Origin: Planctomycetota bacterium | GTDB taxonomy: Bacteria > Planctomycetota > UBA8108 > SXIK01 | Reading direction: 5' to 3' | NCBI GenBank assembly: GCA_965223265.1 | Contig: OZ244999.1 | Coordinates: 736,001-800,000, forward strand | DNA length: 64,000 bases | Part shown: positions 3,866 through 10,120 of the stretch, piece after piece | How positions within the stretch are numbered: the first letter of the stretch is position 1 | Layout of the letters: each line of letters begins with the position of its first letter | Notes under the pieces: generated by a model | The model's database searches: none | What the model was told of the DNA's origin: nothing | What the model saw: only the letters and a program-made list of their open reading frames with translations | Made by a program: the position numbers and the translations under genes

Positions 3866-6800
3866 ATGAGGAAGAACGCTCTCGGCTATTTGACGCTGGT
3901 GCTGCACGCGCACCTGCCCTTCGTCCGTGACCCGCGCCACGACAGGTTTCTAGAAGAAAACTGGCTTTTCGAGGCGCTCACCGAGACGTACCTGCCGCTC
4001 CTCATGATGTTCGACGGGTTGATACGTGACCGCGTCGACTTTCGTCTGGCGATGACGCTCACCCCAACTCTCGTCTCGATGCTCGACGACGAGCTCCTGC
4101 GCGAGCGTTTTGAGCGACGGCTTGGCGAGCTCATTGAACTCAGCGAGAAAGAGACGCAGCGGCTCGGTAGCGAGCCTGAGCTGTACGAGCTCGCGAGTTT
4201 CTACCACGATCGACTCCGCGCTCAGGGCGCATTCTATCGCGACCGATGTCAGCGCGACGTCACCGGGGCTTTCCGGCGGCTTCAGGACAGCGGACGGGTC
4301 GAGATCTTGACGTCAGCGGCGACGCACGGATTCCTGCCAATCCTGCGGCATGAACCCGCCGCGGTGCGCGGCCAAATTGCCGTGGCTGTCGACCACTACT
4401 GCGACCGTTTCGGTCGGCAACCGGAAGGTATCTGGCTCCCCGAATGCGGTTATTATCCTGGACTGGACGAGACGCTTCGCGACGTCGGAATTCGCTACTT
4501 CTTCGTCGAGAGTCACGCGCTCCTTCACGGCAGTTCTAGACCGAAGTACGGCGTCTACTCTCCGACCGTTTGTGAGTCTGGAGTTGCAACCTTCGCTCGC
4601 GATCCGGAGTGTGCGAAACAGGTGTGGAGTGTCAAAGAGGGCTTTCCTGGCGCTCCGGACTATCGAGAGTTCTACCGAGACATTGGTTTTGACCTGCCAC
4701 TGGATTATGTCGGTCCGTACATTGCCCCTGATAGCGTTCGTATTCAGACCGGATTGAAGTACTACAGGGTCACCGGCGATACCGACGCCAAAGAACCATA
4801 CGTCCGTGCGCGCGCCCTGAGGCAGGTCGAGGAGCACGCTGAACTCTTCTGCAGATGGCGTTGTGAGCAGATGGAATGGCTCGCAGGGCAGATGGACCGG
4901 CGCCCGGTGATTGTCGCCCCTTACGACGCAGAGCTCTTCGGGCATTGGTGGTTCGAAGGGCCGGAGTGGTTGGATGCACTGCTTCGACGCGTCGCGCAGA
5001 CCGGCGAAAAGCTCATGACAGCGACACCGTCTGAGTATCTCGCGGAATACCCAGAAGCTCAGGTCGTCACGCCTGAGGCTTCGAGTTGGGGAGCGGGCGG
5101 ATACAGCGAAGTGTGGATCAATCCAGACAACGACTGGATCGTACCGCGCGTACTGCGAGCGTCGCGCGAGCTGGCGCAGCTTTCGTTTGTCCACACCGGC
5201 GCCCAAGGAAGGGTTCGACGTGTACTCAATCAAGCGAGTCGAGAACTTCTGCTCGCCCAGTCGAGCGATTGGGCGTTCATCATCCGCAATCGAACTGCAG
5301 CTGAGTATGCCGCTCAGCGTGTCAACGAACACCTTGAGAACTTTGAAACGCTTATCGAGCCAATCGGGTCGGTGGGTAGCGGAGAACTGTTCGACGAGTC
5401 TCGCTTCGCGGCGATCGAAGCTCGCAACAATCTCTTCCCGGACATCGATTTCGAGCACTTCGCGGAACAGCGTGAGCGCCCCTCATATGCAGTCAGCAGT
5501 CGACCGCTGCACATCGCATTTTTGGCGGCGGAGGCCGCCCCGTTTGTCAAGGTTGGTGGGCTTGGCGATGTCGCTGCCGCGTTGCCGCCGGCGCTTGCAG
5601 AGTGGGGGCGCCGGGTGACAGTGGTGTTGCCAGGGTATCGCGCGATCGATCGCGACAAGCATAAGGTCAAACCTCTTGCCGGTGGCCTTCGAGTCCCGGT
5701 GGGCGGCCGTGACGTGGAGTTCGAGCTGCTTGAAGCGGCCTCGCCCGCAGAGGGGGTGCGCGTCATCCTTGTCGGCCAGGATGAATACTTTTCTCGCGAT
5801 GGTGTCTACGTTGATCCGATCAGTGGCGAAGAGTATCCAGACAGCGCCGAGCGATTTGTTTTCTTCACGCGGGCGGCGCTGGAGGCCCTTCGTGAGCTGG
5901 GACACCGAGTTGACGTGGTTCACAGTCACGATCATCAGACAGCGCTGGCATCGGCCTATGTGAAGTTTCACTATCGCGATGATCCCGTTGTCGGGCTCGC
6001 AGCATGCGTCTATACACTTCACAATTTGGGCTATCAGGGCGACTACGATGCAAGCGCGTTGGAACTTGCAGGTTTCGGCCTCGACCAGTTCTATCCCGGC
6101 AGCGATTTCGAGCACCATGGCCGCGTCAACTTCATGAAGCTCGGGATCCAATTCGCTGACAAAGTGAATACCGTGAGCGAGAACTACGCACGGGAAATCC
6201 GCACCGACGAGTCGCTTGGCGCCGGGCTCCGTTCCGTGCTCGAAGCGCGTGGGGAAGACTTCCAAGGGATTCTCAACGGTATCGACGTTGACACTTGGGA
6301 CCCAGCCAAGGATCCGTTCCTTCCGCACAGCTACAGTGCGGATGTCCTGGACGGAAAGCAGGCATGTAAGATCGAGTTAATGGATGCCTCGGGCCTTGAT
6401 CGTCCGAACGGTGGTGTTCCACTCGTTGGTATGGTCACACGCCTCGTAGACCAGAAGGGGCTTGACCTTGTGGAGGAAGCGTTGCCGCAAATGCTTGAAC
6501 TTGGGATCCAGCTCGTCGTGCTTGGCACGGGGATCCCGCGCTACGAGGAGTATCTCCGCCAGGTGGCAGAGCAGAATGCCGGCGTCGTGGCGGCGTTGAT
6601 CAAATTCGACAATCGCCTCGCGCATCTGATCGAAGCGGGGTCGGACATGTTTCTCATGCCGTCACTCTACGAACCGTGTGGGCTCAACCAGATGTACAGC
6701 CTGCGCTACGGTAGCGTTCCGGTCGTTCGCGCCACAGGAGGATTGGCCGACACGGTGATCGACAGTGACGCCCATCCGGCACGAGGTGTTGGCTTTACGT

Positions 6801-6979
6801 TTTCCCCCTACACCGCGGCCGCGATGGTCGACGCTCTCGCACGGGCGGTCAGGGCGTATCACGAGGCCGAGCGTTGGCGAGAGATTCAACGTCGCGGCAT
6901 GACGCGGGACTACTCGTGGGGAGTGTCAGCGCTCAAATACGTCGATCTGTACGCTGACGCGTTGAGGACACGGACCTGA
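3866..6979 (+). CDS. glgA: Fused GH57 1,4-alpha-glucan branching enzyme (DUF1957) and glycogen synthase (GT5)
   Basis: GH57 motifs HAHLPFV, GIWLPECGY, APYDAELFGHWWFEG and AQSSDWAF in aa 1-530; GlgA motifs KVGGLGDV, TLHNLGYQG, GILNGID, RLVDQKG and PSLYEPCGLNQMYSLRYG in aa ~547-1037; one continuous ORF. Confidence 0.92.
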   Translation: MRKNALGYLTLVLHAHLPFVRDPRHDRFLEENWLFEALTETYLPLLMMFDGLIRDRVDFRLAMTLTPTLVSMLDDELLRERFERRLGELIELSEKETQRLGSEPELYELASFYHDRLRAQGAFYRDRCQRDVTGAFRRLQDSGRVEILTSAATHGFLPILRHEPAAVRGQIAVAVDHYCDRFGRQPEGIWLPECGYYPGLDETLRDVGIRYFFVESHALLHGSSRPKYGVYSPTVCESGVATFARDPECAKQVWSVKEGFPGAPDYREFYRDIGFDLPLDYVGPYIAPDSVRIQTGLKYYRVTGDTDAKEPYVRARALRQVEEHAELFCRWRCEQMEWLAGQMDRRPVIVAPYDAELFGHWWFEGPEWLDALLRRVAQTGEKLMTATPSEYLAEYPEAQVVTPEASSWGAGGYSEVWINPDNDWIVPRVLRASRELAQLSFVHTGAQGRVRRVLNQASRELLLAQSSDWAFIIRNRTAAEYAAQRVNEHLENFETLIEPIGSVGSGELFDESRFAAIEARNNLFPDIDFEHFAEQRERPSYAVSSRPLHIAFLAAEAAPFVKVGGLGDVAAALPPALAEWGRRVTVVLPGYRAIDRDKHKVKPLAGGLRVPVGGRDVEFELLEAASPAEGVRVILVGQDEYFSRDGVYVDPISGEEYPDSAERFVFFTRAALEALRELGHRVDVVHSHDHQTALASAYVKFHYRDDPVVGLAACVYTLHNLGYQGDYDASALELAGFGLDQFYPGSDFEHHGRVNFMKLGIQFADKVNTVSENYAREIRTDESLGAGLRSVLEARGEDFQGILNGIDVDTWDPAKDPFLPHSYSADVLDGKQACKIELMDASGLDRPNGGVPLVGMVTRLVDQKGLDLVEEALPQMLELGIQLVVLGTGIPRYEEYLRQVAEQNAGVVAALIKFDNRLAHLIEAGSDMFLMPSLYEPCGLNQMYSLRYGSVPVVRATGGLADTVIDSDAHPARGVGFTFSPYTAAAMVDALARAVRAYHEAERWREIQRRGMTRDYSWGVSALKYVDLYADALRTRT

Positions 6980-7235: not shown

Positions 7236-7442
7236 CCCGACAGTTGCACAAGTTTTTGCAGGAAGGGCTCAGAAACCCTTTCCCTGAGGTTCGATCGGCA
7301 GTTGAGGGACGTCGTGGCGGACCACGTTTGGTGAGGTTGACGGTGTGCCGTGTTCCCCCTCGCCCACGCACACCCACACGCAAACTCTCACTCAGTCGCA
7401 ATCGCGCACGGTCTTAAGGTGCGTCTCTTTTGCAACGTTGGG
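7236..7442. mobile_element. MITE family B, copy 1 (207 bp, 6-bp TSD GTCAGT)
   Basis: Near-identical to 42814-43198. Imperfect TIRs CCCGACAGTTGC / GCAACGTTGGG; GTCAGT at 7230-7235 and 7443-7448. Confidence 0.8.
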
Positions 7443-7446
7443 GTCA

Positions 7447-7505
7447 GTCTCAGTCTCTGCCTCCGCCTCCGTTTCTGTTTCCGCCTCCGTTTCTGTCTCC
7501 GCCTC
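7447..7505 (-). repeat. Hexamer array, G-rich block (GAGRCR/GAAACR on the minus strand), interrupted by the IS110 element and continuing at 9160-9187
   Basis: gtctca gtctct gcctcc gcctcc gtttct gtttcc gcctcc gtttct gtctcc gcctc|IS|t gcctct gcctct. Confidence 0.8.
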
Positions 7506-7556
7506 AGAAACTATGGGCCGTCCTCGTGTACCATAGTCTTTTTTAGGAGTGAAGAG

Positions 7557-8684
7557 ATGGCAACAAGAACGACCCAGGGACAGCTTACCGACATGAGCGA
7601 AGTTCTTCACGTGGCAATTGACGTTGGCAACACAACGTGGAAGCTCGTCAGCGGTGTTGCGGGGAGCCGGCCGCGCTGCAGGACGGTCGAGGCGGGAAAC
7701 CTTGCGGAGTTTCAGGAAGAGCTCTCGAAAGCCAAGGCGCGCTTGCGCCTTTCGCCGCAAGCTGAGGTGGTGAGCTGCTACGAAGCTGGCCGCGATGGAT
7801 TCTGGCTGCACCGTTGGCTCGTAGACAGTGGGATCCACAACGCCGTCATTGACCCGGCTAGCTGCGAGGTCGATCAGCGCGCCAAGCGTCAAAAGACCGA
7901 TCGCCTCGACGGAGAGAAGATGCTCGATCTTTTGATCCGTCACCACGGCTCGTCGCGCAGCCCACTGCGCGTTGTCAACGTGCCGAGCGTGCAGATCGAG
8001 GACGAGCGCCGCCTGCCAAGAGAGCGTCAGCGCCTTGTCAAGGATCGCACTCGGCACATCAATCGCCTCAAGGACATGTTGATCAAGTTCGGCATCCGCG
8101 CCCGCCTCAAGAAGCTGCCTGAAATCATCGACACGTTACGCGGCCCCGATGGATCTGCGATCCCCCCGCATGCCAAGGCAGGCATGCTACGCGAGCACGC
8201 TCGGCTGCAGCTTGTCGAAGAGCAAATCGCTGAGATTGAGGCCGAGACTCTCGAAACGCTCACCAACTCGCCGGAGGCCTGCAAGAAAGTCGGCAAGCTC
8301 AACAGCCTGCGCGGCATCGGCATGTACACTGCCGCAACGCTCTACTACGAGTTCTTCTGGCGTAAGTTCAACAATCGCCGTGAAATCGGAGCCCTGGCAG
8401 GAATGGTGAGCGTTCCCTGGCGCAGTGACAACATCAAACGCGAGCAAGGAATCAGCAAAGCTGGCAACGGGCGTGTACGCACACTCATGGTTCAGGCTGC
8501 CTGGAACTGGCTGCGCTTTCAGCCACAGAGCCAGCTATCTCAATGGTTCTGCCAGCGCTATGGGCCAGGCACCAAGCGCTCGCGCAAGGCGGGAATCGTC
8601 GCCTTAGCCAGAAAGCTGCTCATTTCGCTCTGGCGATTCCTCAGCACTGACGTACCACCTCCGTTGGCACGGCTCAGTTCCTAA
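7557..8684 (+). CDS. IS110 family transposase/recombinase
   Basis: DEDD RuvC motifs VAIDV, CYEAGRDGFWLHR and KTDRLD; C-terminal LRGIG, PWRS and GISKAGN. AGGAG SD precedes ATG 7557 (alternative start 7593). Confidence 0.95.
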   Translation: MATRTTQGQLTDMSEVLHVAIDVGNTTWKLVSGVAGSRPRCRTVEAGNLAEFQEELSKAKARLRLSPQAEVVSCYEAGRDGFWLHRWLVDSGIHNAVIDPASCEVDQRAKRQKTDRLDGEKMLDLLIRHHGSSRSPLRVVNVPSVQIEDERRLPRERQRLVKDRTRHINRLKDMLIKFGIRARLKKLPEIIDTLRGPDGSAIPPHAKAGMLREHARLQLVEEQIAEIEAETLETLTNSPEACKKVGKLNSLRGIGMYTAATLYYEFFWRKFNNRREIGALAGMVSVPWRSDNIKREQGISKAGNGRVRTLMVQAAWNWLRFQPQSQLSQWFCQRYGPGTKRSRKAGIVALARKLLISLWRFLSTDVPPPLARLSS

Positions 8685-9140
8685 TTCGATGACCAGCAAC
8701 AGGCTCAACACACCAACCCAACTCAAACGGAGGGACCTGCAGGGCTGACTCGGATTCTTGGCCGACTGTAGGACGCGTTCGAGCAGAGGCTGGGCTGGCT
8801 TTCCAAGCCGCCGTGCTTCTCAGAAGGAACCGTCCTTGTCGGTTCGCCTGCCGCGATGCGAACGCAGTATCAGGTGATCCGCCAGAGAGCGGACACGCAT
8901 AGGAGTTGGCCGCGAGGCGCTTTGCCGCCCCGGCGCTCAGAGCGAACCGAACACTTGGCTTCTTTACCGCCAGCCCAAAGACAACACAGCACTACTACGA
9001 AAATGATCTCTCCCGCGTGCGGTACCTTCCGGGCTGCACAGAGCCCGGGGGCGCTCTACCCGCCGCCCCCCGGACCCCCAGGCAACCCAACTGCCCCACG
9101 TCGGATTGAAGACAATCAAGAAAAGAAAGCTCCCCCGTTG
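8685..9140 (+). ncRNA. Candidate bridge/seek RNA region of the IS1111-type element (exact ends unknown)
   Basis: GCAGAGGCT (8783-8791) is complementary to AG+CCTCTGC (core plus right target flank); CATAGGAG (8898-8905) is identical to the predicted circle junction. Confidence 0.65.
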
Positions 9141-9143
9141 ACA
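9138..9143 (+). promoter_or_regulatory. Outward-facing -35 box (TTGACA) of the IS circle-junction promoter
   Basis: On circularisation it reads TTGACA-17 nt-GAAACT upstream of the transposase, as described for IS1111-type elements. Confidence 0.6.
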
Positions 9144-9200
9144 ACAGTCGGACCATAGGTGCCTCTGCCTCTGCGCCTCTGGTCTCCTTTTTCCCCGTAG

Positions 9201-9854
9201 CTACTTCAACCCGTTCGTCTCTTTAAACGTTCGCCAGTTTTGTTTCAGCTCGAGGAACGAGCTGATATCCGGCGCCAGCAGGAAAGGATTCGTCGCTTTT
9301 TCAAGCGCCACGGTCGATGCCGGGCGGCAGCCGTAGTCGTGTCCCGGCCAAACGGTCGTGTCGTCCGGCACTTCCTTGAGCACGCGCTGCAGGCTGTCGT
9401 ACTCTTGCCGTGCTGCGGCTTCCGTTGCTGTACCACCGATTTTGCCGACGAAAATCAAGTCTCCTGTGATGGCAACGCGTTCAGCTGGCAGGTGGAGCAA
9501 GATGTGGTCATCGGCATGGCCTGGAACATGAAGAACGCGCACTCGGAGCGATCCGATGTCGATGATCTCACCGTCGGAGAGTGGCTTCTGAGGCGCACTT
9601 TGAGCTTCCTTCCACGCAGCAAGAGGCGCGCCTGTTAGTTCGCGCGCCGCGTCGTTCCCGTTGATATGATCTGGGTGGCCATGGGTGTTGACGACGCAAG
9701 CGACATCGAGTGACTGCGCTCGGGTGCGCTCGACGACAGCTTCGGGAGCGTACGACGGGTCGATGATCATCGCGACGCCCGCCTCCCGGTCTCCAAGTAC
9801 GTACGCGAAATTCCGATCGCCGCCGGTACGGATCTGCTCGAACACGAAGCGCAT
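9201..9854 (-). CDS. MBL-fold metallo-hydrolase (glyoxalase II-like)
   Basis: THGHPDH, PGH, TGDLIF and PGHDY motifs; GAGGAG SD. Confidence 0.9.
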   Translation of the reverse strand: MRFVFEQIRTGGDRNFAYVLGDREAGVAMIIDPSYAPEAVVERTRAQSLDVACVVNTHGHPDHINGNDAARELTGAPLAAWKEAQSAPQKPLSDGEIIDIGSLRVRVLHVPGHADDHILLHLPAERVAITGDLIFVGKIGGTATEAAARQEYDSLQRVLKEVPDDTTVWPGHDYGCRPASTVALEKATNPFLLAPDISSFLELKQNWRTFKETNGLK

Positions 9855-10120
9855 GTCGTCTCCTCTCATGGGATTGCTGCTGGCGCGTTATAACGCGATG
9901 GGGCACGGTCCTCTCACATGCGACAGACACTCGCGTGATGGAAGCTTGCCGCACTCTGGACGATTGATGTGGACTTGGTCTTGCACGAGGCGACAATGAC
10001 GGATGCTCTTGCCTGCGAAGGCACGCACAGCGACAGGACGACGCGCCGCTCTTCGGCCGCTGGCGCCAATCAAATCATGTGGACAGATCGAACGATCATA
10101 TTGAAAGGAACGACACGGCG

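Follow-up and report, generated by a model that had tools for sequence, protein, structure and literature searches.

The closest described relatives of the element reported here are RNA-guided insertion sequences (IS) of the IS110 family. The RNA of IS621 has four guides in two loops that read both strands of the target and of the donor about a 2-nt core, and its target is an abundant intergenic repeat, the repetitive extragenic palindromic (REP) sequence (PMC11208160, PMC11208158). The seekRNA-encoding elements ISEc11, ISPa11 and ISKpn4 have subterminal repeats and a long 3′ non-coding region, and insert without visible target duplication into element-specific targets (Siddiquee et al. 2024, PMC11187229). 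ISPpu9 of Pseudomonas putida has a downstream small RNA gene, an invariant AG at both ends and repeated intergenic targets (PMC12288879). We have analysed a stretch of 64,000 nt from a Planctomycetota bacterium (contig OZ244999.1 of assembly GCA_965223265.1, positions 736,001 to 800,000 of the forward strand), termed the window below, that contains an element at 7506–9159 resembling all of these in the properties listed. We conclude, with a probability of about 0.8 for the reading as a whole, that this is an RNA-guided IS110-family element with a predicted bridge/seek RNA of ~170–185 nt (8762–8945) encoded in its 3′ non-coding end, the putative guides of which are programmed against a phase-specific site in a (GCCTCT)n-type tract.

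The differences from the described systems are equally clear. Unlike IS621, the predicted RNA of the window element is located at the 3′ rather than the left end, its donor guides lie in a multi-hairpin junction rather than a simple internal loop, and the target is mismatched to the core at the equivalent of T9, a position that is almost invariant in IS621. While ISEc11, ISPa11 and ISKpn4 recognize a unique 12-mer, REP or attC sequence, the target here is a hexameric simple repeat, and the core of the donor is not that of the target. The targets of ISPpu9 are REP palindromes, and its RNA also occurs in solo copies (PMC12288879), in contrast to the direct simple repeat and the TG right junction of the window element.

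The boundaries and target of the element are as follows, where LT and RT are the left and right targets flanking the core in the tract, and LD and RD the left and right donor sequences flanking the core at the element ends.

7506–9159, plus strand: IS110-family insertion sequence; its length of 1654 bp includes the AG core once, at the left end; eight full copies in the genome with identical junctions.
7443–7505, plus strand: left portion of the interrupted hexamer tract (units of the GTCTCT, GCCTCC and GTTTCT type), the last bases of which (..GCCTC) are LT.
7506–7507, plus strand: AG core at the left junction, donor type, AG in all eight copies; in the relatives AG is likewise found five bases before CTATG.
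7508–7512, plus strand: RD, positions +1 to +5, AAACT; one of these five bases is mismatched to the right-donor guide.
7511–7522, plus strand: left subterminal inverted repeat CTATGGGCCGTC, complementary to 9147–9158 at 10 of 12 positions, with CTATG/CATAG preserved in relatives.
9147–9158, plus strand: right subterminal inverted repeat GTCGGACCATAG, pairing with 7511–7522 at 10 of 12 positions.
9160–9161, plus strand: TG at the core position of the right junction, target type, mismatched to the guides and the donor; TG in all eight copies.
9162–9187, plus strand: right portion of the hexamer tract, in which CCTCTGC is RT.

Five bases lie outside the 12-bp subterminal repeats on the left and one on the right. 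Removal of 7506–9159 joins ...gtctccgcctc to tgcctctgcc..., in phase. The source genome is a single contig of 9.18 Mb, in which a DNA search finds eight full copies of the element, five of 1654 bp and three of 1743 bp. The longer copies contain a tandem duplication of 9002–9090 (with one base changed) and three silent substitutions in the gene; the bridge-RNA region and the protein are identical in all eight. Every copy is located inside a GCCTCT-like hexamer tract, in the same position and orientation, at four separate loci. The junctions are the same throughout, (g/t)cctc being followed by AGAAACTATGG on the left, and CCATAGG by tg(c/t)ctctgcc on the right. Tracts of at least four degenerate units, found by regular expression, number 80 in the genome (5.8 kb in total), one of them at 7453–7500.

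What a preliminary description had observed in the DNA of the window is confirmed. The element, GCAGAGGCT, CATAGGAG, CTGACTCGG and GGCTTCT are all found at the positions it gave, excision restores the tract in phase, the AG on the left and TG on the right recur in each of the eight copies, and its expectation that the other copies would be flanked by hexamer tracts holds for all eight. The suggestion that the repeat serves as a safe harbour is an interpretation: the window copy sits between the 3′ ends of convergent open reading frames (3866–6979 on the plus strand and 9201–9869 on the minus strand) and is the only copy so shown.

Five of the copies form a head-to-tail array on the minus strand at C1:487257–496009 (L003–L011), separated by tract spacers of 36, 54, 72 and 54 bp. 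Copies of 1743 bp (C1:487257–488999, 490744–492486 and 494267–496009) alternate with those of 1654 bp with a period of 3523 bp, and a pair comprising a long and a short copy was duplicated, probably by unequal exchange. Two solo right-end remnants are also present. One (L012, C1:6414623–6414687) is 94% identical over 63 bp, while the other (L013, C1:5827833–5827927) derives from an older, 81%-similar element and ends CCATAG-C-TG-TCTCCGCCTCTG. Both adjoin hexamer-like sequence, which suggests a long association between this lineage and hexamer tracts.

The element has a single long open reading frame, with 51 bp of non-coding DNA on its 5′ side and 475 bp on its 3′ side.

7557–8684, plus strand: gene for the transposase/recombinase, 375 aa, with PF01548, PF02371 and NF033542; the protein is identical in all eight copies.

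Judged from this protein the element is a member of the IS110 family. The DEDD/RuvC-like N-terminal domain PF01548 scores 40.1 bits (cut-off 29) and the C-terminal domain PF02371 53.3 bits (cut-off 21.3), and the NCBIfam equivalog NF033542 (‘IS110 family RNA-guided transposase’) 194.4 bits against a cut-off of 140. The protein also has the catalytic serine and acidic residues expected of the family. The sole relative of solved structure is the IS621 recombinase (E = 0.0027), in the alignment with which S290 is placed opposite the catalytic S241; E76, D115, D118, G282, P287 and S290 are invariant in an alignment (A1) of 18 sequences, comprising the window protein and 17 homologues. The first acidic catalytic residue (~22) is D in the window protein (VAIDVGN) and E in the consensus of the homologues in A1 (VAFELGN).

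The layout is that of the IS1111 type, with subterminal inverted repeats within 7–17 bp, a long 3′ non-coding region and a downstream guide RNA. IS1111 transposases are described as having 330–350 aa and the motif GL-P----S(t)G (PMC11187229), whereas the window protein has 375 aa and the catalytic loop G-M-V-S-V-P-W-R-S-D (G-x4-P-x2-S-D). Because length and motif depart from that description, on which the comparison was based, we speak of an IS1111-like layout and not of membership; the designation ‘IS1111-type’ in the preliminary description stands for the layout and fails for the length and motif of the transposase. A protein search of 60 related genomes gave no match at E 1e-60 beyond the source genome, and a metagenome scan no relative closer than 48%. 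The closest proteins in a collection of 5.8 billion are P0001 (70% identity) and P0002 (74%, of partial length).

The guides were identified by comparison with 160 relatives with protein identities of 39–50%, taken in equal numbers (80 each) from genome assemblies and metagenomes. A common scaffold is present in their non-coding regions, ~170–260 nt past the stop codon. In order, this comprises an internal loop closed by a stem and containing a hairpin, a small hairpin, the sequence GCAG-N-AT-NN-GGTG (which opens a second hairpin, closed by CAC), the sequence GG-ATAG(A/G)AG-GTGG, and a third hairpin. The scaffold is found at 124 of the 160 loci, and the 7-mer made of ATAG and the next three bases is repeated at the right end in 98 of these (AAG in 91, GAG in six and ACG in one). 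At the other 26 there is no such 7-mer at a right end in the DNA examined, and the contig often ends there. This identity between the left-donor guide 7-mer and the right end makes no use of the core, and would miss relatives with a core mismatch. It replaced ungapped scoring of inverted repeats, which was too strict (19 of 160 loci passed) and mis-picked some ends.

In 29 relatives for which both ends are defined, guides were located as matches between the non-coding region and the flanks, with positions counted from the ATAG(A/G)AG motif. A right-target guide, the reverse complement of core plus right flank, lies at about −116, and a left-target guide, left flank plus AG, at about −82. The right-donor guide AG-N-AT at about −33 is the complement of left-end bases +1 to +5, and the left-donor guide at position 0 is ATAG(A/G)AG itself, the same as right end plus core. 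The corresponding segments of the window element are these.

8783–8791, plus strand: right-target guide GCAGAGGCT, reverse complement of AG plus CCTCTGC, pairing with the top strand, in the position and register of the relatives.
8817–8824, plus strand: left-target guide TTCTCAGA, equal to LT (..CTC) plus AG plus A, pairing with the bottom strand, in the position of the relatives.
8866–8870, plus strand: right-donor guide AGTAT, aligned with AG-N-AT of the relatives, in which N covaries with the left end.
8898–8905, plus strand: left-donor guide CATAGGAG, equal to LD (CATAGG) plus the AG core, matching at eight of eight positions.

Outside the core, GCAGAGGCT matches its flank at seven of seven bases. 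TTCTCAGA is identical at four of seven with one additional U:G pair, where the family mean for a guide and its own flank is 4.3 of 7. In dinucleotide shuffles of the window non-coding region the anchored 9-mer match recurs in 94 of 20,000 and the 8-mer match in 66 of 20,000, and both together in none of 20,000.

Across the family the guides follow their targets. With the window included (n = 30), right-target guides match their own flanks at a mean of 5.97 of 7 positions and those of other elements at 2.93, and left-target guides at 4.30 versus 1.78; none of 10,000 permutations reached either value. A second, independent set of 42 metagenome elements, reduced to 35 by dropping repeated flanks or guides, gives 5.57 versus 2.86 and 4.17 versus 1.94 respectively, again with none of 10,000 permutations. 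The middle base of the right-donor guide, which reads the third base of RD, finds its complement in the left end of 26 of 30 elements, and one more has a G:U wobble.

The RNA structure is also conserved. A consensus fold of 30 sequences contains three helices, in which 88.8% of cells are paired, compared with 34–48% when the partners are slid. Both sides change in 13 of 17 pairs, and the observed covariation score is reached in none of 500 shuffles. A covariance model built from 29 relatives, with the window left out, has one match in the 64-kb window, at 8774–8941 (63.6 bits, E = 2.7e-12) and over the full length of the model. In the whole genome its matches are the eight copies alone, with no solo copy of the RNA among them. 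The structural elements are

8762–8842, plus strand: target-binding domain, comprising an outer stem, an internal loop with the two target guides and an inner hairpin (8793–8812).
8842–8863, plus strand: hairpin A, preceding the donor guides; a similar small hairpin is seen by eye in relatives, without pair counts.
8874–8896, plus strand: hairpin B (GTG...CAC), between the donor guides; eight pairs, seven of which change on both sides, with 89.6% of cells paired.

The stem formed by GTTC (8777–8780) and GAAC (8827–8830), and the inner hairpin, are backed by covariation. The region has those properties of a bridge/seek RNA that can be read from sequence, with segments complementary to both strands of the target, segments matching the donor, and a conserved structure of three helices. 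The preliminary description had placed a guide RNA at the 3′ end of an IS110-family element, which the covariance-model match, NF033542 and the Pfam domains uphold, and its two strong guides, GCAGAGGCT and CATAGGAG, fall exactly at the right-target and left-donor positions of the family. Its two weaker candidates, CTGACTCGG (8745–8753) and GGCTTCT (8957–8963), are not the remaining guides, which homology and covariation identify as TTCTCAGA and AGTAT. The covariation of guide and target across homologs that it had called for is present in both sets of relatives.

In the window element AG is present at the left junction, in the left-donor guide and in both target guides, while the tract itself provides the TG of the right junction. 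The described bridge/seek RNA systems have identical donor and target cores, a feature that the window element lacks. Both ends were located in 75 relatives, and in 74 of these the dinucleotide following CATAG-N is the same as that five bases ahead of CTATG. AG is found on both sides in 73 and CG in one (L115); the single discordant case is probably a mis-picked left end. Since AG/AG is so general, the TG at the right junction is a real mismatch in the core, as the preliminary description had suggested from an AG core and a one-base difference between the junctions. The 12-mer with the TG core occurs 60 times in the genome and the guide-specified 12-mer with AG once, so that the sites used by the element are near-cognate and abundant. 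Opposite the core A, the right-target guide has G in place of U in roughly half of the relatives, and pairing at that position is evidently inessential on the right-target side.

The six-base periodicity of the tract would permit a crossover elsewhere in the flanking TGCCTC, for example at a top-strand CT core. Two findings led us to reject this: the core of the relatives is fixed at the AG five bases ahead of CTATG, and the base that follows TG differs between tracts (as in copy A). Two further observations concern the core in relatives. L115, on a metagenome contig, has CG on both sides (..CG-AAA-CTATG and CATAG-A-CG..) and the guide ATAGACG, a natural change of core with a matching guide. 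Among 14 loci inspected, drawn from the 26 that lack the 7-mer at a right end and from some others, the right ends of L030 and L161 are CATAG.AGG with the guide ATAGAAG, consistent with either a GG core (a second case of mismatch) or a 1-nt deletion at the end.

In the mechanism that we propose the internal loop of the RNA would carry the two target guides, and the three-hairpin junction would carry the two donor guides, AGUAU reading the left end and CAUAGGAG the right end and core. A phase-specific target in a tract would place every copy in a tract in one orientation, and allow one tract to hold five copies. If the element is turned round, AG becomes CT, and the guides would follow each other in the RNA as left-target, right-target, left-donor and right-donor, which is the order in IS621. 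CT is the canonical core of IS110 elements. The order of the guides is reversed between the IS1111 and IS110 types (PMC11187229). The top-strand cut of IS621 falls 3′ of the CT core, between T9 and the next base, which leaves the core attached to the left flank; T9 is nearly invariant (PMC11208158). By analogy the first cut in the window element would be made in the bottom strand, between LT and the core. If the bottom strand alone were exchanged, the products would be LT-AG-RD at the left junction and LD-TG-RT at the right, as observed. Excision by the same rule would release a circle with AG (predicted joint ..CCATAGG-AG-AAACTATGG..) and leave a tract with TG, whereby donor and target would each keep their own core indefinitely. 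Expression of the RNA, its binding by the recombinase, the circle and the identity of the deciding strand are all points that we infer.

For CazIS110-1 the described model is of top-strand copy-out, with top-strand insertion favoured >1,300-fold over bottom-strand insertion (Sun et al., bioRxiv 10.1101/2025.10.25.684509). Such a model would yield the asymmetry of the window junctions when the cores differ, and the footprint agrees with it, with small statistical weight. The work on CazIS110-1 was performed in vitro and on plasmids with an IS110-type element having matched cores, whereas the window element provides a genomic footprint only. Tentatively, and with less than even confidence, the copies may be viewed as a natural experiment, in which each arose from exchange of the strand cleaved first, single-strand transfer decides the outcome of both insertion and excision, and nature tolerates a mismatch at the supposedly near-invariant core base adjoining the cut. 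If this is true, each insertion records the strand exchange that was inherited, because donor AG and target TG differ, and the genome itself holds evidence for single-strand transfer. Tolerance of the mismatch would also let the element colonise a microsatellite and build arrays.

The mechanism might be RNA-guided and nevertheless proceed by full two-strand (Holliday-junction) exchange, the uniform AG on the left and TG on the right having arisen by chance, biased mismatch repair or shared descent. We consider this rather unlikely, while noting that in the structures of IS621 the bottom strand is cleaved after top-strand exchange, that repair of mismatched nucleotides is mentioned by their authors (PMC11208158), and that only about five independent events can be inferred. 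Two-strand exchange without bias should produce heteroduplex cores and give the opposite configuration half the time, yet none of the four loci shows it, and TG likewise stands on the right of the older remnant L013. Joining of the bottom strand is moreover reported to be >1,300-fold rarer in vitro in the CazIS110-1 system (bioRxiv 10.1101/2025.10.25.684509).

The evidence on the guides bears on two explanations that would dispense with RNA guidance to the tract. Copies could have spread among tracts together with their flanks by homologous or slipped recombination, so that the guides match merely because of where the element lies. The regular 3523-bp period of the array does point to unequal exchange, and with 80 tracts of four or more units there are many potential partners. 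However, the junction base and the phase are constant despite differences in the repeat units and outer flanks (copy A reads gtctc before the element and tgtctc after it), and the guides are internal to the element and not derived from its flanks. The covariation of guide and flank in 30 and 35 relatives with unrelated targets moreover indicates that these RNA positions track the target, and we judge such spreading very improbable. It is slightly more improbable still that the recombinase protein itself recognizes the repeat, by DNA structure or sequence, with the 3′ region having a purely regulatory or end-binding role. The match of the left-target guide is short, as this would allow, but four segments of the RNA covary with four of the DNA across the family, the stems covary, and dependence on RNA has been demonstrated experimentally for other members of the IS1111/IS110 group (PMC11187229).

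A number of observations weigh against RNA guidance as we describe it, or against its proposed strand rule. The exact match of TTCTCAGA extends only over CTC, AG and A, plus one U:G pair, and AGTAT matches its own left end at four of five positions, with one mismatch. An outer closing helix for the donor junction was not established, and a search of 7300–9400 against Rfam 15 at a permissive threshold returned two matches at chance level and no matching family. In the minimum-energy fold of the single sequence the two target guides (8783–8791 and 8814–8822) are paired together. They are mutually complementary because the target is a direct repeat; the family consensus places them in a loop, and in the free RNA pairing between the guides may mask that loop. 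The strand assignment depends on analogy with IS621, whose recombinase is only distantly related to that of the window element (E = 0.0027). Moreover, Durrant et al. (PMC11208160) report for IS621 a strong preference for pairing with both core strands, so that a tolerated mismatch at the base equivalent to T9 is unexpected. Finally, the period of the array indicates that part of it was made by duplication, for which reason at least five insertion events are counted and not eight. If two-strand exchange were unbiased, about five events would share a single configuration with a chance of ~3%, which lends the strand rule modest support.

It is well supported that the window element is a new representative of known RNA-guided systems, unusual in its class of target and in its natural footprint of core mismatch. 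A word search of the open-access literature revealed no IS110-family element aimed at a microsatellite; the supplements of PMC11208160 and PMC11187229, which might list the clade or a simple-repeat target, lay outside that search. Bridge/seek RNAs are being developed as tools for programmable recombination, and natural cases show what the enzymes tolerate. A hexamer target offers many sites per tract, and tandem arrays of elements arise. The consistent core mismatch bears on the question of two-strand versus single-strand exchange. It also has a practical consequence, since pipelines that bound IS110 elements by a repeated core (PMC11208160) would mis-bound the window element or drop it.

Two further features lie near the right end of the element.

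9002–9090, plus strand: GC-rich segment of 89 bp, tandemly duplicated in three of the eight copies, outside the match to the RNA model.
9138–9143, plus strand: TTGACA facing outward, a possible −35 element of a circle-junction promoter, matching the −35 consensus at six of six positions.

The best −10 sequence past the predicted circle junction scores three of six, and a promoter there is weakly supported.

Contigs of 151 nt in run X6, which comes from another study, are identical to the window at 8707–8857 and at 9093–9230, including the unique right flank. The same insertion is present in that data set, which may represent the same strain. The assembled contigs of public runs X1, X2, X5 and X6 contain neither the circle joint nor an empty site, which carries no weight either way. 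In many of the relatives (L092, L087, L035, L062 and others) the left and right flanks are mutually complementary, indicating targets that resemble hairpins, REP sequences or terminators. Unlike these hairpin-like targets, that of the window element is a direct simple repeat.

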